Notes: generated by a model not told the origin, from the letters alone. 64,000 nucleotides of DNA from Planctomycetaceae bacterium UBA2671 (GCA_002359185.1 DEML01000116.1:20362-84361); one strand, 5' to 3'; numbered from the stretch's first letter, positions 30,990 to 61,328 are shown. Numbers and translations are program-made.

Positions 30990-30997
30990 TTGGGAAG

Positions 30998-32608: not shown

Positions 32609-32863
32609 CCAGGGCAACAGTATTCGATTCTGGTAGTGAGAATTCACGTCATTCATAACCAGTTCGATGTCTTTACAATACAAAGCAGGGCATGGTTGTA
32701 GAAAAAGTAACTTTGTGAGAAGGAGAACTTGCTGTCACGTTGTCATGTGTTCAGAAAGTAGATCAAAGCATAAATGAGCCGACCTGAGAATGCCAATTAA
32801 AAGCCTGGTAATTCTCTACGATTCAGACGGAATTCGTATTAGTGAGAATACCGGATTTGGAAA

Positions 32864-34783: not shown

Positions 34784-34802
34784 GCAGTCTTCTCGAATAA
34801 TT

Positions 34803-44302: not shown

Positions 44303-46072
44303 ATGACGATCAGTAATCCCTTTCATCACATCGAATTCAAAGACCGGAATGACTTCGAGTTCTCCAGGATCGTCTGGTGCTGCGCGTGTTGTGTGATTCT
44401 TTGCTGCGGAATCGGCTGTGCCAGATTGCCCAAAACGTCAACCACATCTATAGCCTTGGCTAACCCAGATTCAACCGCAGTGGAAGAGTATCCGGCCCTG
44501 ATCGTAAGTGCCGAGATGGATGGCGAAAAACATCGCGAGGCGAATCTGACTCAGCTCAACGTTAGCGAATCGCAACTTCTTGAGGAAAGCACTAACGAAG
44601 AAGTCATCGAATTTGCTGCTTATTCGACCAATTCCGATTTACAAACTTCGGAAGCCTTAACGATTTCCATGGCAATGCAGGTGATGCTTGAGAATAATCC
44701 ACTGGTCAGGCAGGCACAACTTTCTCAGGAAATGCAGCAGACGCTCATCGATCAATCTCTGGCTGAGTTCGATACTACGCTTTCCTCGAACCTCGATATG
44801 AGACAGGTCAACCAACAGGCCAGTTCCGCAATCGATGCTCTGGGGACGGGACAAAATACAATTTCGACGACCAGCCTGGGAACTTCGAATGGACCTGATC
44901 TACTGGCTTTTGGGAAAAAATGGGAAACCGGAACACAAACCCGACTGGCGTATGGCAGCAATTATAATAACAACAATCCTTCCGGGTCCTTTCTTCTGGT
45001 GAACCCGGCTTACTCCTCAAATTTATCTCTGAGTGTCAGCCAACCGCTCTGGCAGGGAAGAAATCAAAATGTCAATGAGGCTCCTATTGCGATCGCCAAA
45101 TTAAATCAGGCGCGGTCAAAGTATGAAACTCGGGAAACGGTCACCGATCTGATTGTCGAACTTCATGCAGCCTACTGGTCGGTCTATCAACTCCAGCAGG
45201 AAGTCACACTCATTGAACAGGAATTATCGGATGCCGAACATTTGCATCACGAAGAAGAAGTACGTCTCAAACTCGGTGAAGGGAGTATGGTGCGTCTGAC
45301 ACGCTCGCTCGATTATGTTCAACAACTAAAAATCGAACTGGCCCAAGTTGAGCAACGAGCGTTCGAGGCTGAACAGAGACTCTTCCTGACCATGGGGATT
45401 GATCAGTCACTGTCTACTATACCTCGTCATCTGATCGCCGAGCCCGTATCCAATCTTATCGCAATAGACGCGGTCAGCAGTCGCGAGCAGGCACTTCAGA
45501 ATCGAAATGAACTCAAAATTGCCCGCCAAAAACTCAAGACCGCGGAACTCCAGAGACTGCAGGCTGAAGACCTGACAAAACCATCAATCAACGTTGTGGG
45601 TCGCGTTGGAGTTTCCGGACTCGATTCGAATGCCTTCGGAGCGATCCAGAATGCCAGTTCCGGAAACTATCACAACTGGATGATGGGCCTGAACTATGAA
45701 CGTAAACTTGGCAAACGAGGCGAACAGGCCCTGCTGAAACGAGCGGAGTTGCAGTTTCAGTCTGCGATGATTGAACTGCGAAAAGCTGAGAACATTATCA
45801 ACTACGATGTCGACCAGAGCCTGGAACAGGTGCGGAAAAGCTATGACATCTATCAGGCCCAACTGACTCGCTCTAACCTCCTCATAGAGCAACTCGATAT
45901 CTACAACAAGCTGTACCACAAAGGGCAAATCACCATTGAACAACTGGTGGAATCGCGTGGTAATCTCCTCTCCGTTCAACGCGACGAATTGCTGGCGCTG
46001 GTCAATTACAATCTATCGATTGTTGTCTATCACCGCAGCCTCGGAAATTTAACGCATCGTTATTCCCTTTGA
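44303..46072 (+). CDS. TolC-family outer-membrane efflux protein
   Basis: 589-aa ORF with a Cys-rich lipoprotein-like signal (VILCCGIGC). It has two OEP-type helical repeats (e.g. LSLSVSQPLWQGRN, the coiled-coil LIEQELSDAEHLHHEEEVRLKLGEGS, and a second repeat NVVGRVGVSG...). Confidence 0.8.
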   Translation: MTISNPFHHIEFKDRNDFEFSRIVWCCACCVILCCGIGCARLPKTSTTSIALANPDSTAVEEYPALIVSAEMDGEKHREANLTQLNVSESQLLEESTNEEVIEFAAYSTNSDLQTSEALTISMAMQVMLENNPLVRQAQLSQEMQQTLIDQSLAEFDTTLSSNLDMRQVNQQASSAIDALGTGQNTISTTSLGTSNGPDLLAFGKKWETGTQTRLAYGSNYNNNNPSGSFLLVNPAYSSNLSLSVSQPLWQGRNQNVNEAPIAIAKLNQARSKYETRETVTDLIVELHAAYWSVYQLQQEVTLIEQELSDAEHLHHEEEVRLKLGEGSMVRLTRSLDYVQQLKIELAQVEQRAFEAEQRLFLTMGIDQSLSTIPRHLIAEPVSNLIAIDAVSSREQALQNRNELKIARQKLKTAELQRLQAEDLTKPSINVVGRVGVSGLDSNAFGAIQNASSGNYHNWMMGLNYERKLGKRGEQALLKRAELQFQSAMIELRKAENIINYDVDQSLEQVRKSYDIYQAQLTRSNLLIEQLDIYNKLYHKGQITIEQLVESRGNLLSVQRDELLALVNYNLSIVVYHRSLGNLTHRYSL

Positions 46073-46392
46073 TTTGAATTTCTACTGCTATCTGTCCTCA
46101 GGCTGCTTCTGCGAAATGGAGTGCTAAATGTCAATTCAAACCGGTCACGTGCATCTGGGTAAATATTAGTACAATTTGATCATCACAATTTCTAAAGAAA
46201 TTGAAGACAGATCACGTCGGATACTGTACACTTCCAGTCATACTCGCCACTATTTCATAAATGCTCCATTCGCTGAGCAGTCACAGGGATAGGAGCTGAG
46301 ACGCAACAATCGTGATCGATGAGTGACTTCCAATGTCGCTCTAATATTTCTCAACAATTTTATTTGCACAATCATAATATTAAGGTGTCGAA

Positions 46393-47388
46393 TTGCTTAT
46401 TACGCGATCACATTGGATTGGCCATCGAGTGTGGGCGCTGGTGACTTTGCTGGTCGGCATCATCAGCATTGTGATCTTTGCGTTTCGAGTCGCAAATTCT
46501 GAAAGCTGGCCTACGGGGAGCGATCCCTACTGCTTCCTGCTGGGAGTTGGAGCGTTCCTGATTATCGTCTTCGAAAGTCTGCTCTGGCTTCGCAAGAAAT
46601 TACGGCTCGTCCGGATTCTTGGGAAGCCGAAGACCTGGATGAAAGCTCATATCTGGCTCGGATTATTGTGTGTTCCCTTCGCGGTTATGCACAGTGGCCT
46701 AAGGTTTGGAGGACCACTAACGACTGCTCTGATGGTCATTTTTGGCCTGGTCATTCTCAGTGGAGTGAGTGGATTAATTCTCCAGCAGTTCATTCCCAAA
46801 ATGATGTTTCAGATGATTCCTCACGAAACAATTCATTCACAAATCCCCCGCGTTGTCTGTCATTTACGGAATGATGCCGAAGGCTTGATTCGACAGTTGA
46901 ATCGTGATTTTGCCTTTGAGAAAATGCAGGGTGATCTGCTCCATCTGGAACGGGTTGAACACGAAGCCCTTCGAAGTCAGTTTCTGATAGAAGGAGACGA
47001 CAAGCGAAATCGGGGAGGCGCGAGCAATATCAAGTCGATTTCTGCTCCTACGATTTTTCGCCAAAACATTCCGAAAGATCATCCTCTTGTCAAATTTGCG
47101 AAAGAGTATCTCGATGACTTTATGAGCCTGAAAAAGTATGGCTCTTCGCCATTGCGGGATTCTGTTCGCATGCAGCGAGAGTTTCGAAAAGTACGCACCG
47201 AGTTGGAAGAATCGCAGGTGGCAACACTGGATCAACTGGAAAAAATTTGCAGCGAACGAAACGAACTGCATCAGCAATACCGTCTGCATCTCCTGCTCCA
47301 TTTCTGGTTGTATGTGCATTACCCGTTGACGATTCTCCTGTTGGGATTGTTGGGAGTGCATATCTATTTTGGATTGTATTATTGGTAG
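46393..47388 (+). CDS. Integral membrane protein with two intramembrane His pairs (candidate di-heme b-type electron carrier)
   Basis: 331-aa ORF with a TTG start. It has about 5 TM helices and a roughly 160-aa soluble coiled-coil insert between TM4 and TM5. By my residue count, His86/His100 lie in TM3 (KAHIWLGLLCVPFAVMHSG) and His309/His323 in the last helix (VHYPLTILLLGLLGVHIY). Confidence 0.6.
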   Translation: MLITRSHWIGHRVWALVTLLVGIISIVIFAFRVANSESWPTGSDPYCFLLGVGAFLIIVFESLLWLRKKLRLVRILGKPKTWMKAHIWLGLLCVPFAVMHSGLRFGGPLTTALMVIFGLVILSGVSGLILQQFIPKMMFQMIPHETIHSQIPRVVCHLRNDAEGLIRQLNRDFAFEKMQGDLLHLERVEHEALRSQFLIEGDDKRNRGGASNIKSISAPTIFRQNIPKDHPLVKFAKEYLDDFMSLKKYGSSPLRDSVRMQREFRKVRTELEESQVATLDQLEKICSERNELHQQYRLHLLLHFWLYVHYPLTILLLGLLGVHIYFGLYYW

Positions 47389-47468
47389 GATATACAAATC
47401 TGTTACGGTGAAAGTGTCTCACACTTGATCTCGAACTGTTCACTACCCTTGCGTGAAACGACTGATTG

Positions 47469-49280
47469 ATGGCCTTAAATAAGAATCTAATGACGGACCA
47501 ATCTGGAAAGACGGCTGGCGCACGCGTCAATCGAATTCCTCCGGATTACTATCGTCGGTCCGATTCGATTCGAAAATGGCGTCATTTTCTGCTGGCGATT
47601 TCCGTCTTGCTTGTAGGAGCCATCATTCTATTTTCAGTCGACTGGAATGGAGTCCGGTCAAACGGGCTCCAGGGGTCAACTCTTGTCAAATGGGCGACCA
47701 ATCATGGAGAGATTAGTCAGGCTCATGCGGCTTGGGAACATCAGTGCGAAGTCTGCCATGAACCCTTCAATCCAATTCGAGATCAACATGTCGGCAGTTT
47801 CTTCAATTCCATTGCCGGAACCCAGTTCAAAACCGAAGCACGTTGCACGTCCTGCCATCAGGAATCGCTCGGGCATGTCTGTCAACATTCGATAATCGAT
47901 CAACAGGGCTGTGCGAGTTGTCATCACGAACATCGAGGACGCAATCACAATATTACTGAAGTCCGAAATATAAGCTGCACGAAGTGTCACAAGGATCTTG
48001 AGAAAGCGATGGCAGGAGTTGAGCCGAAGACGGCCTGCAAAAAAACGTCTCATGCGAATGGCTGGCAATCGATTGAACATTTCTCGACGCAGTCTCATCC
48101 CCAATTTGTATCATTGGAAAATGGTGATCCCGGAAATATCAAATTCAACCATCAATTACACCTTGCTTATGGACAAGGCCTGGGAGAAAAGGGGGGAGAA
48201 ATCCTCGCTGAAATTGAGCCGGACTTCTCTGAAGAGCGGCTTAAACAACTTGCAGACAGCAAGCAGCTCAAATGCAGTGACTGTCATGAACGGGCAGGAC
48301 TGGACTCCGCAGGAGATGCGGTGACACAACGAATGGATTTCCGTCCTATTGACTATGAACGTCATTGTCGATCTTGTCACCCGATGCGTTCTGCTGTCAC
48401 ACTCGTCGAACAAAGCTACGAAATTTCCAACGCGGCTCACGATCTTTACAAAAACGATCGCGACCAGTTGATTCAGGAGAGAATTCCTCACGGATTAACA
48501 CTCGACCAGTTGGAATTTCAAATACGACAACGACTGGCCGGCGTGGCTGTCTACGAACAAGTCAAGTTATCACAGCGAGCAGATCATTCCCCTGTCATAA
48601 TGCCGGGGCAAAGTGAAACCCAGCCACTACCAAATGGACTTCTGCCGAATACAGTTCGAGACGCAGATCAAACAGGGTCTCAAACAAAGAAAAATGATTC
48701 CCTGGAAAGCCTGCGATACTTGAGTCAAAAAGCAGTCGAGCAATTGACGGGATTAGGCGCGAATTGCACGAAGTGTCACTATTACACGGCGACTCTCGAA
48801 GATGGTCAGAAAAAGCAGGTCTTCTCATTCGAGGAAGCGAGGAATCTAAGCAAACTCGATTCTCAACCCGTGAATGGACAAATCGAAATCAGTCCTGCGA
48901 ACATTCCTCAACTCTGGCTCAATAAATCAAAGTTTCATCACCATGCTCACCGCATGGTTTCCTGTGAGAGCTGCCATCCAAAAGCCGAGTTGAAAAAAAA
49001 CCAGGCGACTTATGCGGAACTTGTCGACACACCTGCGACATTCGACAATCTCGAAGTCATGATTCCAGGCATGGAGGTGTGTATAAAATGTCATTCAAAC
49101 TCACCAGAACAGCAAAAGGAATCAGGGAATCATGCCATAGCCGGAGCCAGCGATGCGTGTGTCCTTTGCCATTCGTTTCACCAGGCAGATCAATACAATC
49201 AAGATGATAAATCGGAGTTTTCCAGTCATTTCCGAACGATCGAAGAATTCTTGAACTATCAAGGACCTTCCGAGGAATGA
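47469..49280 (+). CDS. Membrane-anchored decaheme c-type cytochrome
   Basis: ORF 47466..49280 starts at TTG; the ATG is at 47469. A single N-terminal TM helix (WRHFLLAISVLLVGAIILFSV) is followed by 10 CxxCH motifs: CEVCH, CTSCH, CASCH, CTKCH, CSDCH, CRSCH, CTKCH, CESCH, CIKCH, CVLCH. Confidence 0.85.
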   Translation: MALNKNLMTDQSGKTAGARVNRIPPDYYRRSDSIRKWRHFLLAISVLLVGAIILFSVDWNGVRSNGLQGSTLVKWATNHGEISQAHAAWEHQCEVCHEPFNPIRDQHVGSFFNSIAGTQFKTEARCTSCHQESLGHVCQHSIIDQQGCASCHHEHRGRNHNITEVRNISCTKCHKDLEKAMAGVEPKTACKKTSHANGWQSIEHFSTQSHPQFVSLENGDPGNIKFNHQLHLAYGQGLGEKGGEILAEIEPDFSEERLKQLADSKQLKCSDCHERAGLDSAGDAVTQRMDFRPIDYERHCRSCHPMRSAVTLVEQSYEISNAAHDLYKNDRDQLIQERIPHGLTLDQLEFQIRQRLAGVAVYEQVKLSQRADHSPVIMPGQSETQPLPNGLLPNTVRDADQTGSQTKKNDSLESLRYLSQKAVEQLTGLGANCTKCHYYTATLEDGQKKQVFSFEEARNLSKLDSQPVNGQIEISPANIPQLWLNKSKFHHHAHRMVSCESCHPKAELKKNQATYAELVDTPATFDNLEVMIPGMEVCIKCHSNSPEQQKESGNHAIAGASDACVLCHSFHQADQYNQDDKSEFSSHFRTIEEFLNYQGPSEE

Positions 49281-49348
49281 TGTTTAAACTGTCACTTTAA
49301 GTAAGTCCCGATTCAATTTCCGAACCAGCCGCGACAGGCAGTGTATTT

Positions 49349-51085
49349 ATGAGTCTTGTGCAGATATTAATCAAACGACAAAAAGAAAACGGCGGTTTTC
49401 TTTCTGCAGAAGTTCTTCAGGAAATCTCCGATCGAACATCAACTCCGTTATATCGTCTTCAGGAGTTGGTTAGTTTCTACAACAGTTTTCGCCTCGCTCC
49501 TCCGCCGAAGGTTGAAGTGCAGGTTTGTCGTGATTTTTCCTGTCACATGCATCAAAGTCAGGAGTTGATTCAAGATCTCAAGAACGAATTTGCAACAGAA
49601 ATTGAACAGGGGCAGGTTTCCATTTCTGGAAAATCCTGCATGGGCTATTGCGATGGCCCTGTTGCAGTCAGCCTCAATCATCATATTGTCCCCGACAGCA
49701 ATTTGAGACAGTGCGTGACCTCCATTCGCTCAATCCTGAAATCGGGAATCACACATGGTAAGTCTGTTGATCATGAAATACCTGATGAGTGGGAAATCGA
49801 CTGTTATCAGAAGCAGACGAAATATGAGTTACTCAACAATTTTTTGCAGGCTGCCGATCGGAATGCTTTCGGGGAATCGGTATTGAAGGCACTCGAAGAT
49901 TCCAGCCTGGTTGGAAAGGGAGGTCCCGGAGCCAGGACAGCCAAGAAATGGCGGACCGTTAAGAAGTATGCAGAGCAGGAAAATCGAGCGGTCCGATATG
50001 TCGTTTGCAATGCCGATGAAAGTGAGCCGGGAACGTTTAAGGATCGGGAACTTCTGCTCAGAACTCCCCATCTGGTTCTCGAAGGCATCATCACTGCGGC
50101 TCTCATCATTGGTGCAGAGCGTGCTTACATTTACATCAGACATGAATATGAATCACAAATCGAGGCTTTTCAGAGGTGCATTGATGATGCAAAGGCTAGA
50201 GGCTTGTGCGGTCGAAATCTCCTAAAGACCGGATTGAATTGTGAAGTGGAAGTCTTTGTCAGTCCTGGCAATTACATTTGCGGCGAACAGACGGCAATGA
50301 TTGAGGCGATGGAAGATAAACGGGCTCAGCCCCGCCAGCGACCGCCCGATTTGGAAATTCAGGGTTACAGAAATTTTCCGACGCTCGTCAACAACGTCGA
50401 AACCTTTGCCTGGGTCCCTGCTATTTTCAATAATGGTCCAGATTGGTATCGAAAACTAGGCGTGAACGACTGCGAAGGAAAGCGATTTGTTTCCCTCAGT
50501 GGAGATATCAATCGCCCTGGCGTGTATGAGGTTCCCTTAGGTTCGACTGTAGGAGATTTGCTCGAACTGGTGGGTGGCATGCGAGACGGACAGGAATTAC
50601 AGGCCTTTGGAGTCTCCGGCCCATCCGGAGGTTTCTTACCAAGAAAGTTTTCACGTGATCAGCTTCCTGACGATTTTGTCAAAAAAATGATCCCAGAGGG
50701 AGAGCATGAATTCGATCTATTGAATCTACCACTGGATAATAACTTCTTTCGATTTCAGTTGCGTGGACGTTTCAACCTGGGAGCCGCCCATCTGTTTATT
50801 GGAGAGCAGACCGATCTGGTCAGTCTGGTTAAATCCTGCACGGAATTTTATCGCAATGAATCGTGTGGCAAGTGTGTTCCTTGTCGGCTGGGCTCTGAGA
50901 AACTCGTCCAGATTGCATCCAGACCATTGAATGAAGGGAAACTGCAGATCCCGGATTACTTCCCGGATTTAATCGAATTAATGCAGGAATCGTCCATCTG
51001 TGGATTAGGTCAAGTCGCTTTCAATCCCCTGTTGTCGTTGAAAGAATTTTTCCCGGAAACTTGGGAAGTCGCCAAAAGTCGGTAG
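49349..51085 (+). CDS. NuoE-NuoF fusion (NADH dehydrogenase flavoprotein module: 2Fe-2S + FMN + NADH + 4Fe-4S)
   Basis: 578-aa ORF. NuoE-like cysteines: CRDFSCHMH...GKSCMGYCDGP. NuoF FMN site: GKGGPGARTAKKW. NADH site: VVCNADESEPGTFKDRELL. N3 cluster: ESCGKCVPCRLGSEK...SSICGLGQ. Confidence 0.9.
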   Translation: MSLVQILIKRQKENGGFLSAEVLQEISDRTSTPLYRLQELVSFYNSFRLAPPPKVEVQVCRDFSCHMHQSQELIQDLKNEFATEIEQGQVSISGKSCMGYCDGPVAVSLNHHIVPDSNLRQCVTSIRSILKSGITHGKSVDHEIPDEWEIDCYQKQTKYELLNNFLQAADRNAFGESVLKALEDSSLVGKGGPGARTAKKWRTVKKYAEQENRAVRYVVCNADESEPGTFKDRELLLRTPHLVLEGIITAALIIGAERAYIYIRHEYESQIEAFQRCIDDAKARGLCGRNLLKTGLNCEVEVFVSPGNYICGEQTAMIEAMEDKRAQPRQRPPDLEIQGYRNFPTLVNNVETFAWVPAIFNNGPDWYRKLGVNDCEGKRFVSLSGDINRPGVYEVPLGSTVGDLLELVGGMRDGQELQAFGVSGPSGGFLPRKFSRDQLPDDFVKKMIPEGEHEFDLLNLPLDNNFFRFQLRGRFNLGAAHLFIGEQTDLVSLVKSCTEFYRNESCGKCVPCRLGSEKLVQIASRPLNEGKLQIPDYFPDLIELMQESSICGLGQVAFNPLLSLKEFFPETWEVAKSR

Positions 51086-51129
51086 TACAATTTGTACATA
51101 AAACACATCAATAATAAAGCAGACTATTC

Positions 51130-53730
51130 ATGGCTGATCTCTCGGAAAAGCAGATCTCTTCATTCGCCAGACGCGAAAATGAGCTTCAGGAATATACGGT
51201 TGAAGGGCAAATTGTCACTCTCTCGCCAGCCGATGCCGAGAAGCAGAACGATCTGCTCAATTTAATCATTGATGGGAATCCCTTTCAATTTCCACGAACA
51301 GTAATGGCTCTCGATGCTTACGGAAGCCCCGTTTACGACAAAAATGGGGACGTGACTTATCGTTATTCCACTATTTATGATGCCGTCGATAAGTATTACC
51401 GAACCCAGCCCGGCGATGAAAATCCGATCCCGATTCTATGCCATCAGCAACATCTTAAACCAGTGGCGATGTGCCGCGTTTGTATGGTGGCTGTGCAGGG
51501 GCCGGAGATGGAACGATCAGGAGAGCCCAGGCGGGATGAAACTGGCAGTGTGATCTATAGTTCCCGTTCGACCCTTGTCCCCTCCTGCCATCGAGCACTC
51601 GACGACTACCTTAATATTCATACGCCCAGAACTCCGCATGATAAATTCCGGAGTCAAATTCGCCGTTTGGGAGGGCTGGCAGTCGAATTATTAATGTCCG
51701 ATCAAGCCAATCCGCAACGCCATCTCCAGGTTGAAGATAAGCAGTTGCCGGAGCTCTATAAACTGGCCAGGCAAGTGGATGTCCCTGCCACGCCCAGGTT
51801 TCCAAGAAGCAGTTCCCATGCAACTAGAACGGTGGATACCTCCAGTTCGATGATCAAAGTCGATCATGGAGCCTGCATCATGTGTGATCGCTGCATCCGG
51901 GGTTGCACCGACGTCAAACATAACAATGTCATTGGTCGAACCGGCTCGGGATATCAAACGCGGATCAGCTTTGACCTCGACCAGCCGATGGGAGATTCCT
52001 CCTGTGTCGAATGTGGGGAATGTGCAATTTCATGCCCGACCGATGCATTAACCATCGACGAGCAGAACATTCCCAATATCGAAATAGGTGCGAATTCCAA
52101 CGAGTTAACCATCGAGGAAATCCAAGCTCATCCCTTACTCAAAACCGTCCCTCCCAAATATCTTTCGTTTATCAAGAATTCATTTTCCCGGAAAACTTAT
52201 CGACGAGGAGACGTTATTTTTCGAGAAGGTGAAATCGGACAAACGGCATTTTTAATGGAAAGTGGTCGATTCCAGATCACCGCACTGTCCCGTCAGAAAA
52301 CATTGAAAAAACACGAAGGCTCAGTCTTCAGTCTGATGACCCGCTTCCGCTTTGATATGGAAGAGGGTGATTCTACGCAGAGTCATTCTCAAAAAACTTA
52401 TAACACCTTCACTTACGGAGGAACTTTCAGTGCGCCGCCGAAAGATGTCCTGAAAGTTTTACCGGATCATGCGTTTGTCAGTGTTGTGACAAAAGACGAT
52501 CATCTCTTTGGCGAGGCCAGTTGTCTCAATAATTATCCAAGAGCCTTCACGGTCGAAGCGATGGATGATGAATGTTCGGTGATTGAAATTCGTCGTAACA
52601 TCGTACTCATGCTGATGCGAGATCGTTCCTCCCGTGAGTTGCTGGAAAAGCTGTATCGGGAACGAGCTCTGGGTGTCGATCTGAAGAAGATCGAATACTT
52701 CTCATCACTCGATGAAGCGGGTCAGGAAATGCGTCGCATCGAGCGACTGCTTAAGGATAAAGTCGAATTGACGAAGGTCCGTCCCGGTCAAACAATTACT
52801 CGCCAGGGTATCGAATCGAATTATCTGAATCTGGTGCGAATTGGATTCGTACGAATCGAGAAGAAAACTGCCAGCGGGGAAACTTATGTCGAAAGTTATC
52901 TCGGACCGGGAAATCACTTTGGCGATCTCGAAATGCTGGTCGATATCGATTCCTGTTACGACACCTTAAACGACATGCAGCGCAGCACAGTCGATCAATA
53001 TGGTCGGGGTTTGAATCAGGCTTCCTATGTCGCAATGGATAACGTTGAGCTGTTGAGAATCCCTAAAGAGGTCTTTAAGGAAATCTATGCTCAATACCCT
53101 ACGATTGCTCAAGCAATGCGGAAGCTTGCAAAGGAAAACCTCGATAAAATTCGTGTGATGCAGCCGACGGATAGTGGCGCGATGAAGAATTTTCTGGATC
53201 AGGGACTCGCCAATGCCCAGAACCTGCTCGTAATCGATCTACTCAAATGCACCCGTTGCGATGAGTGCACCAAGGCTTGTTCTGATGCTCACCTGGGAAC
53301 GACCCGCTTAATCCGCGAAGGGCTTCGATTCGACAAATATCTCGTTACCAGTTCCTGTCGATCCTGCCGCGATCCTTACTGCATGCTCGGATGTCCGGTC
53401 GATGCGATTCATCGCGGCCCCGATTTCAACATGAAAATTGAATCGTGGTGCATTGGCTGCGGCTTGTGTGAAGAGCATTGCCCCTACGGAAACATCAATA
53501 TGCAGCCTTTGCCAGAGAAGAAAACCTGGTGGGGAGGACAGTCGAAAGGACCGATCGAAGCCGGTGCCGATGGACGGGCCGTCATTAAAGTGCAAGCCAC
53601 TATCTGTGACTTATGCACGGAAACATCCAGTAAACAACCTAGCTGCGTTTACGCCTGCCCACACGACGCGGCTCACCGTATGTCAGGCGAAAAACTGCTC
53701 AACCTGGTCGACCTGGAAAGCCGAAACTGA
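51130..53730 (+). CDS. Fusion protein: NuoG-N-terminal-like Fe-S domains + two cyclic-nucleotide-binding domains + DmsB/HybA-like 4x[4Fe-4S] ferredoxin domain
   Basis: 866-aa ORF with no signal peptide. 2Fe-2S: LCH...CRVCMV...SCH. Next clusters: HGACIMCDRCIRGC and CVECGECAISCP. cNMP domains: FREGEIGQTAFLMESGRFQI and GPGNHFGDLEML. C-terminal clusters: CTRCDECTKACS, CRSCRDPYCMLGCP, CIGCGLCEEHCP and CDLC...CVYACP. Confidence 0.85.
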   Translation: MADLSEKQISSFARRENELQEYTVEGQIVTLSPADAEKQNDLLNLIIDGNPFQFPRTVMALDAYGSPVYDKNGDVTYRYSTIYDAVDKYYRTQPGDENPIPILCHQQHLKPVAMCRVCMVAVQGPEMERSGEPRRDETGSVIYSSRSTLVPSCHRALDDYLNIHTPRTPHDKFRSQIRRLGGLAVELLMSDQANPQRHLQVEDKQLPELYKLARQVDVPATPRFPRSSSHATRTVDTSSSMIKVDHGACIMCDRCIRGCTDVKHNNVIGRTGSGYQTRISFDLDQPMGDSSCVECGECAISCPTDALTIDEQNIPNIEIGANSNELTIEEIQAHPLLKTVPPKYLSFIKNSFSRKTYRRGDVIFREGEIGQTAFLMESGRFQITALSRQKTLKKHEGSVFSLMTRFRFDMEEGDSTQSHSQKTYNTFTYGGTFSAPPKDVLKVLPDHAFVSVVTKDDHLFGEASCLNNYPRAFTVEAMDDECSVIEIRRNIVLMLMRDRSSRELLEKLYRERALGVDLKKIEYFSSLDEAGQEMRRIERLLKDKVELTKVRPGQTITRQGIESNYLNLVRIGFVRIEKKTASGETYVESYLGPGNHFGDLEMLVDIDSCYDTLNDMQRSTVDQYGRGLNQASYVAMDNVELLRIPKEVFKEIYAQYPTIAQAMRKLAKENLDKIRVMQPTDSGAMKNFLDQGLANAQNLLVIDLLKCTRCDECTKACSDAHLGTTRLIREGLRFDKYLVTSSCRSCRDPYCMLGCPVDAIHRGPDFNMKIESWCIGCGLCEEHCPYGNINMQPLPEKKTWWGGQSKGPIEAGADGRAVIKVQATICDLCTETSSKQPSCVYACPHDAAHRMSGEKLLNLVDLESRN

Positions 53731-53792
53731 GTCATCTCAGGTGGATAAATCTTTAGAAGTGAAGCATCGCTCTCAGCCGAACACCTTTAAGA

Positions 53793-56700
53793 TTATTCCC
53801 TGAATTGTCGAGCCGATCCGTAATAGGATTCAATCTGTTGATGCAGTAGATCTTCTCGCAGATTAGGGAACTCGATTCGATAATCCGGCGAGAACGTTTC
53901 GACCCGGAATGGCTCCTGGGAAACTGGATTGATATACAACTTCCTTTGTTGCTGATAATTAAACGGCCGGGCACCAACTCGCCCGAAGACGGCAATTTGA
54001 TTCCCCGATTCATCGACCGCTCGATCCCGGTCAATTCCTTCGGCGATGCACAGAGCCTCGCCTTCATGAAGATGATACGTTGCAATCAATTTCGGTTCTG
54101 GCCGCACACTGAATCCATCATTCCCCTCAACGTGTGGGGATGTCAGTTGCAGCACATGCATTCCATTTTTGCCATCGGCTAGATAAGCAAACTCACTGTT
54201 GTAGGTGATTCCCAGTTTCACATCGTGCAAATCGCAAATTTCACCTTCCGCATTGAAGATTTGATCAACAAGAGGTTTTTCCGGATTCGTCACATCGACA
54301 ATAATCAGTCCCTGTTTACCTGCAGCCAGATAAGCATAGTTTCTGGCGACATACACATTATGTAAGTCTTCAAATTCGAGTGCGGTTACGGGAATCGGGC
54401 AGGAGGGATCGGTAATATCAATGACCTTCAACCCCTCTTCATCGCAGACAAAACCGTAACGGAATTCCACTTCCATCTGATGAGGATGATTCAGAAATTC
54501 CTTGCCGAGGACGTTCACGATACACGGTTTCTTAGGATCGGTGACATCTACAACCACGAGCCCCTTCTCACAGCAGACATAGGCATAATTACCGACAATC
54601 TTGACGGACTGGGCACCATCAAGTGCTCCACCCGGGTTGAAGGCAAGTTCCTTTTCCAGGAAGTTATTGAGAGGATCGCCATCTAGTAATGTTCCTGCTC
54701 CGATGAAGACGAGCCCCTCGTAAAGATCCGTCGCGAACAGATATCCGTAGTGAGCAGGAACTTTCTGCTCATCGTTTTCGGGATAATGTTTGCGTGTCGG
54801 ATCGGGAGCAATTGTAGCCGGGGCATAGACGGACGTTGCATATTTTGTACGGACGAAAAACTTCTGACCAATCGGTGAAACGGGAGCAGTCGTCACACGT
54901 TCCGAAAATCCTTTATGGTCAATAAAGGCAATATCGAACACTCGCACACCCGCTTTTCCGCAGGCGGCATAGAGATATTCCCCACGTTTCTGCAATGTCA
55001 AAACGGTTGGCTGTTTGAACGGGCGAAAGACCTCACTGATATCCCGTCCCGGATGTTCGTGAGCATGTTCAAGAATATGATCGTTCTCTTCATGCTCTTC
55101 ATAATGCTCACGGAATGCCAGTTCATGCAGATGGCTGCCAATGACCGCTTGAGGAGCATCTCGTTCGGTCACTGGAACGGCATAAAATCCATGATCTCCA
55201 CAACCAACCCAGCAGAAACGTCCGATGAAGTTCAGGTAGTTGGTTCCCTGCATGAGCAGTTGGGACATGATGGCGTTGTTATCGTTTGCCTGAGAAAGAT
55301 GGCAATCGGTGCACATCTTCGTTTCCCCCCGACCACGCACCGTATGAGGAACATTGGTGCTGAAAGCAATCCCGCTGAGACCTTCCGCGGAAATTGTCTG
55401 CTGCTGTGTATAAATCGATTCGCGATTGTTGTTATAAGAGGTGACATGAATCGCACAGGAGGAGCGGGAAGGGTTGATCTTATTCCCAGTCACATTTCCA
55501 TCGTGTGCCAGCATAAAGACATCATCACGCAACGTCTGGAAGTCATACGATACGTAATTTTTAGTGACATCTCCTTCATTATGGAGATCCGGCATTTTTC
55601 GGTTGGCCTCTTGAGGGAGATGGCAACCATAGCAACTCGGATTCCAGCTGCTGTGGCACGAACTGCAACTCATTGTTTGATTGCAGTGTGCCAGTTTCAG
55701 AGGATCCTGCGGCAAGTCACCCCATTCAAATTTCCCCAGCTCATCGAAGCGAATCGTTTTCGCCAGAGCCGCATTAGCATTGTATTTAGGATGTTTGGGA
55801 TCAATCGTGTCCGAAACCTGGGTCACTTCCCAGCTGAGTCCCTTTTCGACCATCGAGTTCTGGTACAGTTTGTCGCCTCGAAGTTCGAAACGCTGTTTTC
55901 CGAATGGTGTGGTCATCGCCGAGAGTTCCCGACCGTTAGGCTGCGGAGCTTCTCTTTCCTTGGCGGCTGGCCCGGAAGTTCGCATTTGCCAGCGATTATT
56001 AATCAACTTGAAGGCTTTATCGTTAACCGTGCCATGGCAATCGATACATTGAATTTCAATTGCTGCTCGAACCTCACCGTACAATTTGGTATCGCCATGA
56101 ACGTCCTGCACAAAATGGCAATCCACACAATGCATCCCCTTTTCCAGATGCACATCGAGCATATGAACGGGAACTCCTTTTTGCAGATCCAATAACTGCT
56201 GCTCCGCTTTCTCAACTTCAGCCAACGAGAGTGTCGGCTTCTTGCGTTCAAGTTCCTTCACATACAGCGGAATAGCCATCGCCTGTTGAAGCTTTTCATT
56301 TTCGACATGTTCGAGCCGATTGCCGAATTTATCGAGCAGATTTCCCTGACGATCCTTTTTATAGACGGCACGAAATACCCAGCCGTGGCCGTGGAAGTCG
56401 GCAAATTGTGTTTTTTCCAGATGTTTATTCAACGAGGTCAACTCGGTCAGGAATTCCGGATTTGACCAAAGCCCTTTCACACTGGCAGAATTCGGATCGG
56501 CCATTTCCGCCTGAACAATCTGCTCCGCGGTCGGATCGTGCTGTTCCCGCGGATACATATTCTCGCCATCGGTTTCCATGTCCCACCACATGTATCCCAG
56601 ATAGCTGTTCATCACAGTAGTTCCCGGGTGAATATGACAGACTATGCACTGGCTCGTAGGAATTGAACGTGTGAAGTTGTGACTGACCGGATGACCGGAT

Positions 56701-57938
56701 TGAAACTTGGGAATCATGGGATCAACTGACTCAATCAAATCATCAGGTTTTTCAGCTGCATAACCTCGATTGCCATACTTCGCATAAGGCCCCGAATGAA
56801 TTGGTGAACGATCGTTGGCGTAAATCATATGACAAGATGTGCAACCGCTCGAACGGTAATCGCCGGGATGATCGTTGGTCCCCAAAAAATTCAGTGTCGG
56901 ATCGAACAGGCGTGTTTTCTGCAATCCGATGAAGACAGGATCAGTTCGATTCAGCGTCCCCAGCCCTCGATTACTGATTCGTTCCCGCGGTCGTCCAGGT
57001 TCTTCGAGAACTTCGGGAATGCCCGGCTCTGTACGGAAACGTCCCCCCCGTTCAAAAATTCTCAGAATATTCCCAGGTTGCGAAGCTTGATATCGCGGCA
57101 AAGGATCCAAGTAAGGCAGTACACCTTTTCTGGCCGTCTCTTCTGCAGTTGGTGGTGGAACCGTTTGCAGACGCTGAGGCGCCCCATGCATCGAATAGCT
57201 CTCGCCATACATCGGCCATTTCTTCGGAACGGAACCATTATTATACAGCGCTGCTCCCCACAGCATGCAGCCATGCGTCATCATCCCTTTTTTCACCTGA
57301 AGGGTTTCGTTGGGATGACAACCAACAGTTCCGCAACTCAAATGAGCAACTCGCAAATCTCCTGGATTCACAAACTGGATAAACTCAGGAGATTCGTGAT
57401 TCAACAACGTATAACTGCGAACCGGATTTGCAGAGGAATTCCAGATGGTCGGATAACGGGAAGGGACATGGGCCTGCTCGATCGTCGTTGCACAGGGGTC
57501 ACCACCATGGCAATCCGTGCATCCAAGTTGAATCGCCAAAGGCTTCCCCGGTTGCTTGTGGGGATCGTGAGCATTTTTATGACAAACAACACACCCATGG
57601 CTCTTCGCGTCGGCTTCCTCACGAGATTGCCGCATTAACTGGGCATTCGCAATGGCTGGTGGAGTAGGGTAGGGATGCTGTGGATCACCAGGATGAGTTG
57701 GGCCAGGGTGAGAATTATCCAGATCGCCTAAGCGTATTTTGGCAGGAGGGACATCATTCGAGCCCTCGATCAAGTAGCTCCCGGCAGGAATTTTTTCATC
57801 GGCATACAAATGATCTTCACCGGCGGAAAACTCGAACTGAGAAAAATTATAGACGAGATTTCCCAACACCCAGAGTGTCAGTAATGAAACCCCGAATAAC
57901 TTTGGTTTGAAGTGAGAAGGTGTGGGCTTCCTCATCAT
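53793..57938 (-). CDS. Secreted decaheme c-type cytochrome fused to a C-terminal LVIVD-repeat beta-propeller
   Basis: 1381-aa ORF with a signal anchor (LFGVSLLTLWVLGNLV). Heme motifs: CVVCH, CTDCH, CGTVGCH (CX4CH), CTSCH, CIVCH, CVDCH, CIDCH, CSSCH, CYGCH, CTDCH. LVIVD repeats: GVRVFDIAF, GLVVVDVTDPKKP, GLKVIDITDPSCP, GLIIVDVTNPEKP, GMHVLQLTSP. Confidence 0.85.
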   Translation of the reverse strand: MMRKPTPSHFKPKLFGVSLLTLWVLGNLVYNFSQFEFSAGEDHLYADEKIPAGSYLIEGSNDVPPAKIRLGDLDNSHPGPTHPGDPQHPYPTPPAIANAQLMRQSREEADAKSHGCVVCHKNAHDPHKQPGKPLAIQLGCTDCHGGDPCATTIEQAHVPSRYPTIWNSSANPVRSYTLLNHESPEFIQFVNPGDLRVAHLSCGTVGCHPNETLQVKKGMMTHGCMLWGAALYNNGSVPKKWPMYGESYSMHGAPQRLQTVPPPTAEETARKGVLPYLDPLPRYQASQPGNILRIFERGGRFRTEPGIPEVLEEPGRPRERISNRGLGTLNRTDPVFIGLQKTRLFDPTLNFLGTNDHPGDYRSSGCTSCHMIYANDRSPIHSGPYAKYGNRGYAAEKPDDLIESVDPMIPKFQSGHPVSHNFTRSIPTSQCIVCHIHPGTTVMNSYLGYMWWDMETDGENMYPREQHDPTAEQIVQAEMADPNSASVKGLWSNPEFLTELTSLNKHLEKTQFADFHGHGWVFRAVYKKDRQGNLLDKFGNRLEHVENEKLQQAMAIPLYVKELERKKPTLSLAEVEKAEQQLLDLQKGVPVHMLDVHLEKGMHCVDCHFVQDVHGDTKLYGEVRAAIEIQCIDCHGTVNDKAFKLINNRWQMRTSGPAAKEREAPQPNGRELSAMTTPFGKQRFELRGDKLYQNSMVEKGLSWEVTQVSDTIDPKHPKYNANAALAKTIRFDELGKFEWGDLPQDPLKLAHCNQTMSCSSCHSSWNPSCYGCHLPQEANRKMPDLHNEGDVTKNYVSYDFQTLRDDVFMLAHDGNVTGNKINPSRSSCAIHVTSYNNNRESIYTQQQTISAEGLSGIAFSTNVPHTVRGRGETKMCTDCHLSQANDNNAIMSQLLMQGTNYLNFIGRFCWVGCGDHGFYAVPVTERDAPQAVIGSHLHELAFREHYEEHEENDHILEHAHEHPGRDISEVFRPFKQPTVLTLQKRGEYLYAACGKAGVRVFDIAFIDHKGFSERVTTAPVSPIGQKFFVRTKYATSVYAPATIAPDPTRKHYPENDEQKVPAHYGYLFATDLYEGLVFIGAGTLLDGDPLNNFLEKELAFNPGGALDGAQSVKIVGNYAYVCCEKGLVVVDVTDPKKPCIVNVLGKEFLNHPHQMEVEFRYGFVCDEEGLKVIDITDPSCPIPVTALEFEDLHNVYVARNYAYLAAGKQGLIIVDVTNPEKPLVDQIFNAEGEICDLHDVKLGITYNSEFAYLADGKNGMHVLQLTSPHVEGNDGFSVRPEPKLIATYHLHEGEALCIAEGIDRDRAVDESGNQIAVFGRVGARPFNYQQQRKLYINPVSQEPFRVETFSPDYRIEFPNLREDLLHQQIESYYGSARQFRE

Positions 57939-58200: not shown

Positions 58201-60210
58201 CTAAAATGTTTCCCACCAGAAATGAGCTTGAAGTGCCCGGAAAAAGTCGCCAAAAAGTAGACTACCAAGCGGAGCAGGAGAGCACTTGACCTGAGCGTTG
58301 ACCGAGGCTCCCAGGTTAGTATTGATGGATTGATCATCAAGTGAGACGATACATTTCAGGTAAGGCTGCTGATTTCTGTAGACAATCCGCTCAACTTCGG
58401 GGCGAAGTAAATTCCCGGTGTATGTTATATCCGGTTCAGCTAAAAATCGGATTTCTGCAGAAAGAGTCTGGTCAGCGGATTTCCCTTCGATCTCTTCGTA
58501 GAGGTAGCCAAGTTGAGATTCCGGAATCAGCACTTCAATTGTCTTTCTTCCTTGATCATCGAGGATTTCCAGCAGCTTTTCTCCAATTTGTACGGGCTTG
58601 AGTTCCAGCTTACTCTGCAATTCAAAATCGGCAACAACCCCATCAATCGGGGCTATAACCAATAAATTGTTTTGCTCATGCTCCAGAACATCCAATTCCT
58701 GTTGATAAGCGACCAGTTGCAATTTCGCTTTAGCGATTTCTCCCTGGAGCTGGATTCTTTCGATTCGATTGCCTGTTCCGGATTGGAGCAGTTCATTCTC
58801 AAAGGATTGTGTTTCTGTTTTCTGTTGAGCAATCAAGTCCTCAAGCTGACTGATTTCTGCCCGGAGCAGGGTATCTTCCAGTTCGAGCAATACCTGCCCG
58901 GCTTGAACATGCTGTCCGCTGGAAACATGAACTTTCCGTATCACTGAAGACCGGGGAGCATATACCTGCGCCGTCTTCTCTGGCACTACCGTTCCGGACA
59001 TCATGACTTTTCGGGGTAACGAAAAACAGGTCATTAACCATGCAGTCATTCCCAGCAAAATTGCAGCAATGCAATATCGAATGAATCGAGAATATCGCAC
59101 CGCCTGTGAAGCCTGCCCGAGCGGTCTTCGCAAACTCTTGAGGAAAATTCCATCCAGATCCTGTAGTTGAGCCAGTGCGAGTTCCGATTGCCTGACCAGA
59201 TCCGTCTGAAATTCCGTCAAGCGTGCCGGGGCGGACTGATTTTGAAAGCGTTCCAGAACCAGTAGGCCAATCGGATGGCTTTTCCGTGAACGTCGCCTAT
59301 TCGAACGATCAGCCTCCGCTCTATTCGAAGAATAGAGCGGTATGATTTTAAGGAATGTCGATCGCGACCCTTCAATGTATTTGACTAGCTGATCTCTTAA
59401 TGGCAGAGGGTATTCACGACTCTCTCGATCGTAAATCACTTCCTGTCCGGAACGCTGAGTATACCGACCAATCAATGCGAGTTGTCGCATCTGTTGACTT
59501 CGACGATCCACCCGGGCTACTCCGCTGATAGCAATTGGCTCCAGATGGCTAAATCTTGGGCAGAGCAAGCTGACTCGATCAACCTGAGTGAATTGCTGCC
59601 ACTGATTGACAAGCTTACGTGTCCCGCTCTTCAATTTCGTTTCGCAATGAATTGCCTGGGTAAACAGCGAGAATTGCCGGAATGCCTGTCGATAATCGAT
59701 AGCATAATGTCGTTGTTCCATGCTCTGCAGAGTATTGGAAAAAAGCAGAGTCAGGCGAGCCAATGGCTTTTCCCAGTCGGAGACCTCGTCCTCATCTCCG
59801 TTAGAATCCAGCAAAATCCCCAACACTCCGATCGACCGTGTTGAACTCGTCAGAGGAATCAGTACAAAAGTGCGTTCTGGCATCCCGAGAGTGCTGCAGT
59901 TCTGAATAATCACTTGAGATTCGGAAAATGATCGCTGAAGCCAGCCGGGAATGAGTTCGGAAATTCTCGCGGCATCAAATTCCAATTCTGAATTGAAACC
60001 AATATCGGAAAACAGCTTCACCTGCTGAGAACGTTCAGCCAGCCAGATGCAAGCTGGTGCCTGTGAAATTCCATGAACCGCTTCCAGCCATTGCTGACAA
60101 AGTTCATCAATCTGACCTGTGCGATCGCCAATTTCATTCACGCAATCCCAAAGCCGATCCAGTTGACCAGCAAAGGGAAGTGTTTCGGATGTCGCACTTC
60201 CTGTTGGCAT
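58201..60210 (-). CDS. GAF-like (x2) - TM - HlyD-family periplasmic adaptor protein
   Basis: 669-aa ORF. It has two cytoplasmic GAF-like segments (...TFVLIPLTSSTRSIGVLGILL; ...HPIGLLVLERF) and one TM helix (IAAILLGMTAWLMTCF). The adaptor part reads GQHVQAGQVLLELED, then a coiled-coil, then LLVIAPIDGVVADF. Confidence 0.7.
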   Translation of the reverse strand: MPTGSATSETLPFAGQLDRLWDCVNEIGDRTGQIDELCQQWLEAVHGISQAPACIWLAERSQQVKLFSDIGFNSELEFDAARISELIPGWLQRSFSESQVIIQNCSTLGMPERTFVLIPLTSSTRSIGVLGILLDSNGDEDEVSDWEKPLARLTLLFSNTLQSMEQRHYAIDYRQAFRQFSLFTQAIHCETKLKSGTRKLVNQWQQFTQVDRVSLLCPRFSHLEPIAISGVARVDRRSQQMRQLALIGRYTQRSGQEVIYDRESREYPLPLRDQLVKYIEGSRSTFLKIIPLYSSNRAEADRSNRRRSRKSHPIGLLVLERFQNQSAPARLTEFQTDLVRQSELALAQLQDLDGIFLKSLRRPLGQASQAVRYSRFIRYCIAAILLGMTAWLMTCFSLPRKVMMSGTVVPEKTAQVYAPRSSVIRKVHVSSGQHVQAGQVLLELEDTLLRAEISQLEDLIAQQKTETQSFENELLQSGTGNRIERIQLQGEIAKAKLQLVAYQQELDVLEHEQNNLLVIAPIDGVVADFELQSKLELKPVQIGEKLLEILDDQGRKTIEVLIPESQLGYLYEEIEGKSADQTLSAEIRFLAEPDITYTGNLLRPEVERIVYRNQQPYLKCIVSLDDQSINTNLGASVNAQVKCSPAPLGSLLFGDFFRALQAHFWWETF

Positions 60211-60428
60211 AGATCTTCCCTGATCTCTTATGACTGTTTTTAAACTCCATCAATTGATGCTGGATTCTATGGAATCAAAGCGTATCACACAAGATTTGTT
60301 CAGGAGTGTCGGATTCAGGTTCCATATTGACCTGTTTTCAGGATAGCCCTTAGGATGTTCACGATTGTCATGGAGGTTCTGATCCAAACGATTTCGCCAA
60401 TACTGTATTATCTGGAAGTGTGTATCGC

Positions 60429-61328
60429 ATGATCAATGCGCTCAAACAGATTCAAGGCTCTATTATCACTTCTCGAATCCTGATTGCCATATTCGGGATT
60501 GTTATCTTCGCTCAATCCGGAACTGCTCAGGATCGTGAACCGATTGTGATTGATCGATGTGTGCTGAAAATTCGAGATCATATTGAGGTTTCCAGCACAC
60601 GAGCCGCTCGTATTGTTGAGATGAAAATACGACTTGGGAATCTGGTTCAGAAGGATGAACTAATCATTCAATTGGATGGGGAAATTGCTCAGGCAAATTA
60701 CTACGTGGCTCAGCAGCATGCGACCAATAATGTTGAATCTCGATATGCTGTCAAAGCCAATGAACTTTCCCAGAAAGAATATCAACGAGCAATTCAACTC
60801 AACGAAGAAATCCCCGGAGCTCGCTCCCAGGCAGAAATCGAGCAACTCCGTCTGAAAGCCGAACGCTCCGAACTGCAGGTCGAGCAGGCTCAGCAGCATC
60901 ATCAAATTGCTCAAATGAACCGGGAACTGGCATTGCTGGAAGTGAAGCCTTATCGCATTAGTGCACCAATTTCAGGTCAGATCGTCGAAATCCACAAGCG
61001 AGTCGGTGAGTACGTTCAACCCGGAGAAGTGATCGCAGAGATCGTCAGTTTGGAAGAGATGCTCGTCGAGGGATACATCCCCCTCAATAAAGCCTGGCAG
61101 GTCCGGCCTGGTACATCGATTTCCGGTAGTATTTCTTTACCAAAGCTGGCAGACAACATCGGACAGCATACGAACTACCAAGGGCAAATCCTGCTTGTCG
61201 ATTCCACCATCGATGACTTAAGCCAATCCGTCCGCTTTGTGGGTGTTCTCAAAAACGATACGGGACTATTGCGTGCAGGTATCCCGATGAAAATTGTGAT
61301 TGACCCTCAGCAATCAGCTCGTCCGTAA
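60429..61328 (+). CDS. HlyD/RND-adaptor-family membrane fusion protein
   Basis: ORF 60420..61328 starts at GTG; the ATG is at 60429. It has a signal anchor (ILIAIFGIVIFAQSGTA), a coiled-coil (QAEIEQLRLKAERSELQVEQAQQHH) and a lipoyl-like hairpin (RISAPISGQIVEIHKRVGEYVQPGEVIAEI). It is divergent from the GAF-HlyD gene. Confidence 0.7.
   Translation: MINALKQIQGSIITSRILIAIFGIVIFAQSGTAQDREPIVIDRCVLKIRDHIEVSSTRAARIVEMKIRLGNLVQKDELIIQLDGEIAQANYYVAQQHATNNVESRYAVKANELSQKEYQRAIQLNEEIPGARSQAEIEQLRLKAERSELQVEQAQQHHQIAQMNRELALLEVKPYRISAPISGQIVEIHKRVGEYVQPGEVIAEIVSLEEMLVEGYIPLNKAWQVRPGTSISGSISLPKLADNIGQHTNYQGQILLVDSTIDDLSQSVRFVGVLKNDTGLLRAGIPMKIVIDPQQSARP

Follow-up and report, generated by a model that had tools for sequence, protein, structure and literature searches.

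A widespread planctomycete iron-sulfur protein with tandem cyclic nucleotide-binding domains and its candidate role in an electron-transfer operon

We analysed a window of 64,000 nucleotides from Planctomycetaceae bacterium UBA2671 (GCA_002359185.1, DEML01000116.1:20362-84361) and, within it, a gene of 866 codons without interruption (coordinates are given in the table). The encoded protein, hereafter the target, combines an N-terminal iron-sulfur (Fe-S) module, two consecutive cyclic nucleotide-binding (CNB) domains and a C-terminal four-cluster ferredoxin domain. Neither a signal peptide nor a transmembrane (TM) segment is apparent. It is a widespread, uncharacterised protein assembled from known parts, and it lies within an undescribed planctomycete operon, together with genes encoding a NuoE-NuoF fusion (NuoEF), a five-helix membrane protein and a decahaem c-type cytochrome. 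We propose that the target may be the Fe-S "wire" of an NADH dehydrogenase-like complex that is specific to planctomycetes and independent of quinone, and so a conduit to periplasmic cytochromes controlled by cyclic nucleoside monophosphates (cNMP). The proposal is tentative: we believe it nearly as readily as we doubt it.

A search of 5.8 billion protein sequences returned 463 relatives of the target. The best 120 of them are all full length (762-908 aa, about 40% identity) and share an identical domain order, and the residue conservation counts given below refer to these 120 sequences. The three-part fusion described in an earlier note on this DNA is thus genuine, the architecture being kept in 120 full-length homologues, and scans with Pfam and NCBIfam recover all three parts. 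A HMMER search of 1.84 billion cluster representatives (50% identity) gave 604 clusters at E<=1e-30, and in a scan with one genome per species the family was found in at least 578 species-level genomes. The host is a planctomycete in every case with a classification. Database records name these proteins "cyclic nucleotide-binding domain-containing protein" or "4Fe-4S dicluster domain-containing protein"; some records carry the label HndC, which is a wrong annotation. No description of this architecture was found in the full-text literature, nor any account of such gating, which the earlier note had called not a described property of NuoG-type proteins; subscription journals are mostly outside the coverage of that literature, and absence is not proof.

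Some of the related loci carry labels from outside the group. Locus L080 is labelled Ca. Angelobacter (Acidobacteriota), and L043, L044, L050, L052 and L075 are labelled Ca. Kuenenia. A typical planctomycete gene set surrounds the target homologue in L043, L050 and L080, and only the core operon or a fragment of it is present in L044, L052 and L075. These taxon labels look doubtful and possibly reflect mis-binning or mislabelling. As the same planctomycete genes occur there, the loci labelled as out-of-phylum were not counted as evidence for spread beyond Planctomycetia.

All 28 cluster cysteines of the target are invariant in 120 of 120 homologues. They are predicted to hold one [2Fe-2S] and six [4Fe-4S] clusters, seven in total. 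The first domain aligns with Nqo3 from residue 30 onwards and has all four cysteines of the N1b pattern, each of them invariant. In the AlphaFold2 (AF2) model of the target (120-sequence alignment, mean predicted local distance difference test score (pLDDT) 78.9, predicted template modelling score 0.75) this domain has pLDDT 84-97. In the region 51439..51585 (aa 104-152) there is a long insert between its third and fourth cysteines, which aligns with a comparable insert in Nqo3 of Thermus thermophilus. The next site of NuoG, the His-ligated N5 cluster, has no counterpart in the target. Its motif HxxxCxxCxxxxxC is absent; the N5 motif of T. thermophilus Nqo3, HPLDCPTCDKGGAC, aligns opposite the Cys-less stretch ELLMSDQANPQRHLQ, where every family member is without cysteines, and no cysteine between residues 153 and 249 is conserved in the 120 homologues. 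The earlier note had placed a His/Cys-ligated [4Fe-4S] site at HGACIMCDRCIRGC. This was an error, as that segment holds an all-Cys CxxCxxCxxxC, which is the first motif of the subsequent 2x[4Fe-4S] domain. The latter gives a Pfam 4Fe-4S dicluster match at aa 241-312, and its best PDB sequence match is 7vw6_A (E=4e-17).

At the level of known families, aa 100-312 align with the N-terminal parts of HoxU, group-A6 [FeFe]-hydrogenase and NuoG in NCBIfam, all far under the cut-offs. For NuoG/Nqo3 (TIGR01973) the score is 33.8 bits vs a cut-off of 470, and the nuoA-N operon is missing as well. For HoxU (NF005745) it is 77.5 bits vs 333; there is no HoxFYH-type context, and neither the window region nor the related loci contain hydrogenase genes. 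Of the NuoG-type N-terminus suggested earlier, the [2Fe-2S] site of N1b type stands and the His-ligated site does not. The absence of the molybdopterin-like domain, also remarked upon in the earlier note, is confirmed by the lack of any such Pfam match in the target protein. The target is not a NuoG: its score is 34 vs 470 bits, and it has neither the His-ligated N5 cluster nor a molybdopterin-like domain.

The C-terminal four-cluster domain is the best-conserved part of the target (conservation 0.87). Its sixteen cysteines follow the pattern CX2CX2CX3C / CX2CX4CX3CP / CX2CX2CX3CP / CX2CXnCX3CP. The Pfam 4Fe-4S dicluster match covers aa 699-850, NCBIfam alignments of the DmsB, HydN, AegA and HycB types cover aa 699-860, and the PDB matches 7z0s_B (HycB) and 7qv7_A (HycB3) span the entire domain. 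With all sixteen cysteines invariant and matches of the HycB/HydN/DmsB type, the four cysteine clusters foreseen for the C-terminus are indeed there. Membership in the DmsB, HydN and AegA equivalogs was rejected (45.5 vs 214, 41.5 vs 260 and 43.8 vs 1003 bits, respectively). To judge from its sequence, the target works like an N-module Fe-S subunit (NuoG, HoxU, HydA, Fdh1A) joined to a HycB/NarH-like ferredoxin.

The region between the two Fe-S modules does consist of two cNMP-binding domains, as the earlier note had it. Scanned as separate fragments, CNB-1 and CNB-2 score 49.6 and 48.9 bits with PF00027, above the gathering score of 27.5. Two beta-barrels with B/C helices are modelled at aa 328-520 and 521-692, and in Foldseek searches the pair matches the CNB-A/B tandem of PKG I-beta and that of numerous PKA-R structures (E~1e-13). 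CNB-1 contains a disordered variable insert (aa 396-446). With this insert removed, the CNB-1 phosphate-binding cassette FGEASCLNNYPRAFTVEA is in exact register with FGELALLKNKPRAATIKA of the cAMP-bound PKA-R of P. falciparum (5kbf). It has the canonical pattern Gly-Glu / Arg-(Ser/Thr/Ala)-Ala at G461, E462, R471 and A472. Among the homologues, G461 and E462 never vary, R471 is kept in 119/120, and A473, T474 and V475 are conserved at 93-99% (112-119/120). CNB-1 of the target is likely to bind a cNMP, judging from these residues.

The family consensus of the second cassette is FGEIGLL-(loop)-G(V/R)RTATCSAL, with E599 in 113/120 homologues (94%) and R629 in 107/120 (89%), so that CNB-2 is canonical in about 90% of them. 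The Arg/Glu pair, by which the earlier note proposed to judge the domains, is therefore present in CNB-1, missing from CNB-2 of the target, and present in both domains in about 90% of the family. In the target, CNB-1 alone looks competent to bind; in most relatives both CNB domains do. By the fraction of sequences with the majority residue, the CNB cores (0.59-0.66) are conserved about as well as the [2Fe-2S] domain (0.55), and the two ferredoxin domains are higher (0.74 and 0.87). The CNB domains of the family also have additional cysteines, namely C364 (115/120), C465 within the CNB-1 cassette (119/120) and C633 beyond the CNB-2 arginine (114/120), which could be a redox or metal-sensing feature. 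A regulator of the CRP/FNR type was considered and rejected: neither HTH_Crp_2 nor any other helix-turn-helix (HTH) domain was matched, and the C-terminus is the four-cluster ferredoxin.

The gene order was compared in 81 related loci. NuoEF genes occur near the target in 76 of them, immediately upstream in nearly all; in L020 and L073 their position is displaced. Five loci are without NuoEF: in four of these the contig is truncated at the target, and the fifth is a second copy. In the window the NuoEF stop codon lies 44 nt upstream of the target. NuoEF matches the beta subunit of the Methylorubrum extorquens formate dehydrogenase (MeFDH1) and HoxF over both halves. The two proteins are also found fused. 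P0252 (1483 aa) is a single chain of composition NuoE-NuoF-2Fe2S-2x4Fe4S-CNB-CNB-ferredoxin, and in one other locus the break is located between 2x[4Fe-4S] and CNB-1, giving [NuoE-NuoF-FeS] and [CNB-CNB-ferredoxin]. The target is very likely the Fe-S electron-transfer partner of NuoEF.

Three further neighbours recur: the decahaem cytochrome c in 56 of the 81 loci, the membrane protein in 53 and a c554-like multihaem cytochrome in 52. Gaps of 44-77 nt, together with synteny, argue for co-transcription. A promoter and terminator scan of 45900..54100 gave counts equal to chance and is uninformative on the operon boundaries. The membrane protein belongs to no Pfam or NCBIfam family. In an alignment of 102 sequences, the pairs H74-x13-H88 and H297-x13-H311 (numbering of a 319-aa protein) are invariant. 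They are located on helices 67-88 and 261-318 of a confident AF2 model (pLDDT 91.6), in which TM4 and TM5 are separated by a helical domain on the cytoplasmic side. Two stacked b haems are classically indicated by this arrangement, with two H-x13-H pairs carried by two TM helices.

Paralogues consisting of CNB-CNB-ferredoxin only were observed as well, some of them stand-alone, others preceded by FHA-like domains or by long linkers rich in Pro and Ala. Next after one such paralogue, which has no NuoEF nearby, come genes for a homologue 31% identical to the membrane protein and for a multihaem cytochrome. As NuoEF-less paralogues keep these neighbours, CNB-CNB-ferredoxin, membrane protein and multihaem cytochrome form the invariant association, and the electron-input module is variable. 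In P0253, P0316, P0320, P0322 and P0332 the unit is combined with a NUDIX domain at the C-terminus, with FHA-like domains at the N-terminus or with very long linkers rich in Pro, Ala and Lys.

From these observations we infer the following route. NADH would be oxidised at the flavin mononucleotide (FMN) of NuoEF, encoded upstream, and electrons would pass from its [4Fe-4S] cluster N3 to the [2Fe-2S] and two [4Fe-4S] clusters of the N-terminal third of the target, and from there to the C-terminal four-cluster domain. The latter would dock on the membrane protein from the cytoplasmic side, and the four invariant histidines of the membrane protein would hold two b haems stacked across the membrane. 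The b haems would then reduce the decahaem cytochrome c and the c554-like multihaem cytochrome in the periplasm. The CNB tandem lies exactly where the two Fe-S modules join. In tandems of the PKA-R type, nucleotide binding re-orients the B/C helices; by analogy, cAMP or cGMP may re-orient those of the target, and such a putative shift may alter the distance or docking between the N- and C-terminal cluster sets, or the docking of the ferredoxin domain to its membrane partner. Nucleotide binding would thereby toggle electron export on and off. Outward transfer of electrons from NADH would dissipate charge and membrane potential, and hence a tight second-messenger switch would be physiologically reasonable. 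We regard cNMP gating of electron flow in the target as plausible. The scheme in its complete form, that is, NuoEF, a seven-cluster subunit, a dihaem protein of new fold and multihaem cytochromes c making up a respiratory or overflow complex switched directly by cAMP/cGMP, is one that we would sooner doubt than accept.

Several observations weigh against the proposed scheme. Firstly, AF2 confidence is low across the four-cluster domain (pLDDT 45-70). Secondly, CNB-2 of the window protein is without the canonical Glu and Arg (D599, N629), and its closest relative P0002 (55-56% identical) is without the Arg in both CNB domains. Therefore nucleotide control in this clade may be weakened or dispensable. 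Thirdly, the sole family signal of the membrane protein is a faint one (DUF4405, E=0.03), and a Foldseek search of the PDB produced no significant fold match (best E=0.78). Its histidine pattern is what makes a dihaem b transmembrane carrier plausible. In favour of the scheme, the target homologue is directly followed by a class III nucleotidyl cyclase gene in 6 of the 81 loci, and in 13 such a gene lies within the flanks, these being raw counts with no genome-wide background. The immediate neighbours were observed in L006, L008, L053, L056, L060 and L068, the cultured Roseiconus nitratireducens being among these hosts. This adjacency is a suggestive link of the family to cyclic nucleotides; there is no cyclase gene within the 64-kb window.

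The same facts bear on the most serious alternative. The CNB tandem could be a structural spacer, a dimerisation scaffold or a sensor of something other than a nucleotide, the electron-transfer complex remaining as proposed and cAMP/cGMP gating being absent. CNB folds have often been adapted to other ligands, such as haem in CooA, the ligand of CprK and nucleosides in the trypanosome PKA-R, and the trypanosome protein is among the Foldseek matches of the target. The degenerate CNB-2, the missing arginines of P0002 and the conserved C364, C465 and C633, which could mean redox or metal sensing, are all in line with it. However, CNB homologues with a changed ligand usually lose the Glu/Arg pair. 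Here, G461 and E462 are invariant and R471, E599 and R629 nearly so (119/120, 94% and 89%) at an overall identity of about 40%, and hence the pattern is that of retained ribose-phosphate binding. Moreover, cyclase genes adjoin the target homologue in several loci. We therefore consider this alternative unlikely, but not negligible.

In another reading the complex would be a non-pumping NADH:quinone oxidoreductase, with the membrane protein working like NarI or FdnI in reverse and the multihaem cytochromes belonging to a separate quinol-oxidising branch. In the NarH-NarI layout, a cytoplasmic four-cluster protein is combined with a 5-TM dihaem b subunit, and the target and membrane protein resemble this; the histidine pattern of the membrane protein fits. 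Similarly, the Geobacter pairs of cytochrome b and multihaem cytochrome c of the Cbc type are quinol oxidases. Still, the membrane protein has neither similarity to NarI, FdnI or NrfD in Pfam and NCBIfam nor a fold match, no quinone-site motif could be identified in it, and it is always directly followed by the membrane-anchored decahaem cytochrome. This makes the quinone reading improbable in comparison with direct transfer to the cytochromes.

Alternatively, CNB-CNB-ferredoxin, membrane protein and multihaem cytochrome could be a transmembrane redox sensor reporting the periplasmic redox state to the cytoplasm. The paralogues in which FHA-like domains and long Pro/Ala-rich linkers replace the NADH module would be natural in this case, as would weak matches to LdpA-type Fe-S domains and the adjacent Ser/Thr kinase genes of loci L082 and L083. 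On the other hand, the main family is firmly coupled to a full NADH-oxidising flavoprotein, nine Fe-S clusters are predicted altogether, a typical feature of catalytic electron transfer, and the target has no output domain (HTH, kinase or GGDEF). We give this explanation a small chance.

A flavin-based electron-bifurcating enzyme of the Bfu/HydABC type is very improbable. NuoF and the N-terminus of the target do match HydB and HydA of bifurcating hydrogenases. However, HydB-type subunits of the Bfu family carry an extra N-terminal [2Fe-2S] domain and a C-terminal 2x[4Fe-4S] domain, whereas NuoEF consists of 2Fe-2S_thioredx, Complex1_51K, SLBB and NADH_4Fe-4S only. Bifurcation is unlikely because the flavoprotein is without these Bfu-specific domains; a catalytic hydrogenase or formate dehydrogenase domain is absent as well. 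Last, an assembly or frameshift artefact joining separate genes, a caveat of the earlier note, is refuted: although gene calling gave two overlapping genes for the equivalent in L082, the target open reading frame is covered with 0 differences by two 46-kb contigs assembled independently from marine metagenomes, a variant with about 98-99% identity from a different study has substitutions only and 0 indels, and the same domain order recurs in more than 120 full-length homologues, the family being encoded in at least 578 genomes. The search of sequencing runs returned DNA-type metagenome runs only.

Table. Position in the window of the target gene, its domains and the neighbouring genes (numbering from the first nucleotide of the window)
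Feature	Coordinates	Strand	Comments
Target gene	51130..53730	+	Protein of 866 aa with Fe-S module, CNB tandem and four-cluster ferredoxin
[2Fe-2S] ferredoxin-fold domain, aa 40-165	51247..51624	+	Predicted ligands C104/C115/C118/C153, equivalent of NuoG N1b
Helical linker, aa 166-240	51625..51849	+	Cys-less vestige of the NuoG/HydA His-ligated [4Fe-4S] site (N5/FS4C)
2x[4Fe-4S] ferredoxin domain, aa 241-312	51850..52065	+	C249xxC252xxC255xxxC259; C292xxC295xxC298xxxC302P
CNB-1, aa 328-520	52111..52689	+	Pfam, PKA-R/PKG alignments, AF2 beta-barrel with B/C helices
CNB-1 phosphate-binding cassette, aa 460-477	52507..52560	+	FGEASCLNNYPRAFTVEA; Gly-Glu...Pro-Arg-Ala and family-conserved C465
CNB-2, aa 521-692	52690..53205	+	Pfam; Foldseek to PKG I-beta 4z07 and PKA-R
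CNB-2 cassette, aa 597-636	52918..53037	+	Degenerate here: D599, N629, Q630, Y633, 9-aa helical insert
Extra CNB cysteine positions	codon 364 52219..52221; C465 52522..52524; codon 633 53026..53028	+	Window protein: Phe at 364, Tyr at 633
Four-cluster [4Fe-4S] domain, aa 699-866	53224..53727	+	HycB/HydN/DmsB-type; sixteen invariant Cys, C707..C843, four motifs
NuoE-NuoF fusion, 578 aa	49349..51085	+	C60/C65/C97/C101 of N1a type; FMN and NADH motifs; N3 motif ESCGKCVPC
Decahaem c-type cytochrome, 604 aa	47466..49280	+	10 CxxCH; membrane-anchored, one N-terminal TM helix
Five-helix membrane protein, 319-331 aa	46393..47388	+	No Pfam family; H-x13-H on TM3 and on TM5
1381-aa protein	53793..57938	-	9 CxxCH and LVIVD repeats; weak ExtM/ExtN-like matches
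772-aa protein	41904..44222	+	Faint alginate-export match (outer-membrane barrel?)
1078-aa protein	38023..41259	-	M10-peptidase/HbpS-like
Multi-gene stretch	27228..37025	-	Two c554-like multihaem cytochromes, unassigned 663-aa protein, SecA paralogue, M50-HlyD

Outside the core operon, the genes of the 1381-, 772- and 1078-aa proteins recur near the target in 10-11 of the 81 loci, with 41-63% identity, and are conserved as well as the target or better. These three proteins may form an outer-envelope extension of the electron pathway. The stretch 27228..37025 includes a short SecA paralogue (639 aa), which is under all SecA and SecA2 cut-offs, and an HlyD adaptor in fusion with an intramembrane metalloprotease of the M50-like "daptide HExxH" type. 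The SecA-like and M50-HlyD genes adjoin the target also in L002 and L070, where a c554-like cytochrome recurs, and L002 additionally keeps the OEP gene and two HlyD genes of 44303..46072 and 58201..61328. The regions 1120..10024 and 14470..17852 contain a chemotaxis-type cluster (histidine kinase, CheR, CheB, PAS-MCP, CheA-CheW-REC hybrid), PAS-GGDEF-EAL and HDOD genes, which look ordinary and unrelated to the target.

Cyclic nucleotides control respiration via transcription, as in the case of CRP, or via phosphorylation. We know of no case in which they bind directly to an electron-transfer subunit, and, if the proposed gating is true, this would be the first example of an electron-transfer chain gated allosterically by a second messenger. 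The idea is testable, since members of the family occur in the cultured Roseiconus nitratireducens, Rhodopirellula sallentina, Tautonia sociabilis, Stratiformator vulcanicus and Rubripirellula lacrimiformis. The analysis also exposes an unannotated operon common to most Planctomycetia, and its membrane protein, modelled with confidence, has a fold without a match and a dihaem-like histidine pattern. This operon could explain the abundance of multihaem cytochromes in Planctomycetia, which are mostly aerobic heterotrophs. The recurrence of CNB-CNB-ferredoxin with an FHA-like module, with a NUDIX module or with none suggests a reusable "regulated ferredoxin" building block.

The closest solved relative of the N-terminal third of the target is the alpha subunit of the tungsten formate dehydrogenase FDH1 of Methylorubrum extorquens (Fdh1A; 7vw6, 7e5z, 8j83), with E=4e-17 over aa 182-307 and a Foldseek E=7e-14. 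This subunit is likewise Cys-less ("LLVADQPER") at the position of the His-cluster, and in FDH1 beta (Fdh1B) NuoE and NuoF are again fused, both halves matching the protein encoded next to the target. However, FDH1 alpha continues as a catalytic domain with tungsten-bis-(pyranopterin guanine dinucleotide), whereas the target continues as two CNB domains and a four-cluster ferredoxin with no catalytic site. With the N-termini of NuoG/Nqo3, HoxU and HydA the target has in common the N1b cysteine spacing, the following ferredoxin-like [4Fe-4S] domain and a partner of the NuoE/NuoF type. It keeps both [4Fe-4S] sites of the ferredoxin domain, like HoxU and HydA and unlike NuoG. The N5/FS4C His-cluster, the molybdopterin-like C-terminal domain and the nuoA-N context of NuoG are missing.

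The central part is analogous to PKA-R and PKG, where two consecutive CNB domains are likewise joined via B/C helices. The tandems of the latter regulate a kinase, whereas that of the target sits between Fe-S domains. It differs also in the large variable inserts (aa 396-446 and in the CNB-2 cassette), the degenerate CNB-2 and the extra conserved cysteines. The sixteen-cysteine pattern of the C-terminus is common with HycB/HydN, the N-terminus of AegA and NarH, although the HycB/HydN-type ferredoxin is here a domain of a larger protein and not a separate subunit. The proposed hand-over to a 5-TM dihaem subunit would parallel that between NarH and NarI, but the membrane partner of the target is unrelated to NarI, FdnI and NrfD in sequence and fold. 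Functional analogies only exist with two other systems. In NOX-type enzymes, electrons pass from NAD(P)H via flavin and two stacked b haems on H-x13-H helices to an extracytoplasmic acceptor, and in Geobacter systems of the Cbc type a cytochrome b is paired with a multihaem cytochrome c. No relation of the operon to either of them was detected in sequence or fold, and the planctomycete system would differ from both in interposing a nine-cluster Fe-S chain and cNMP sensors.

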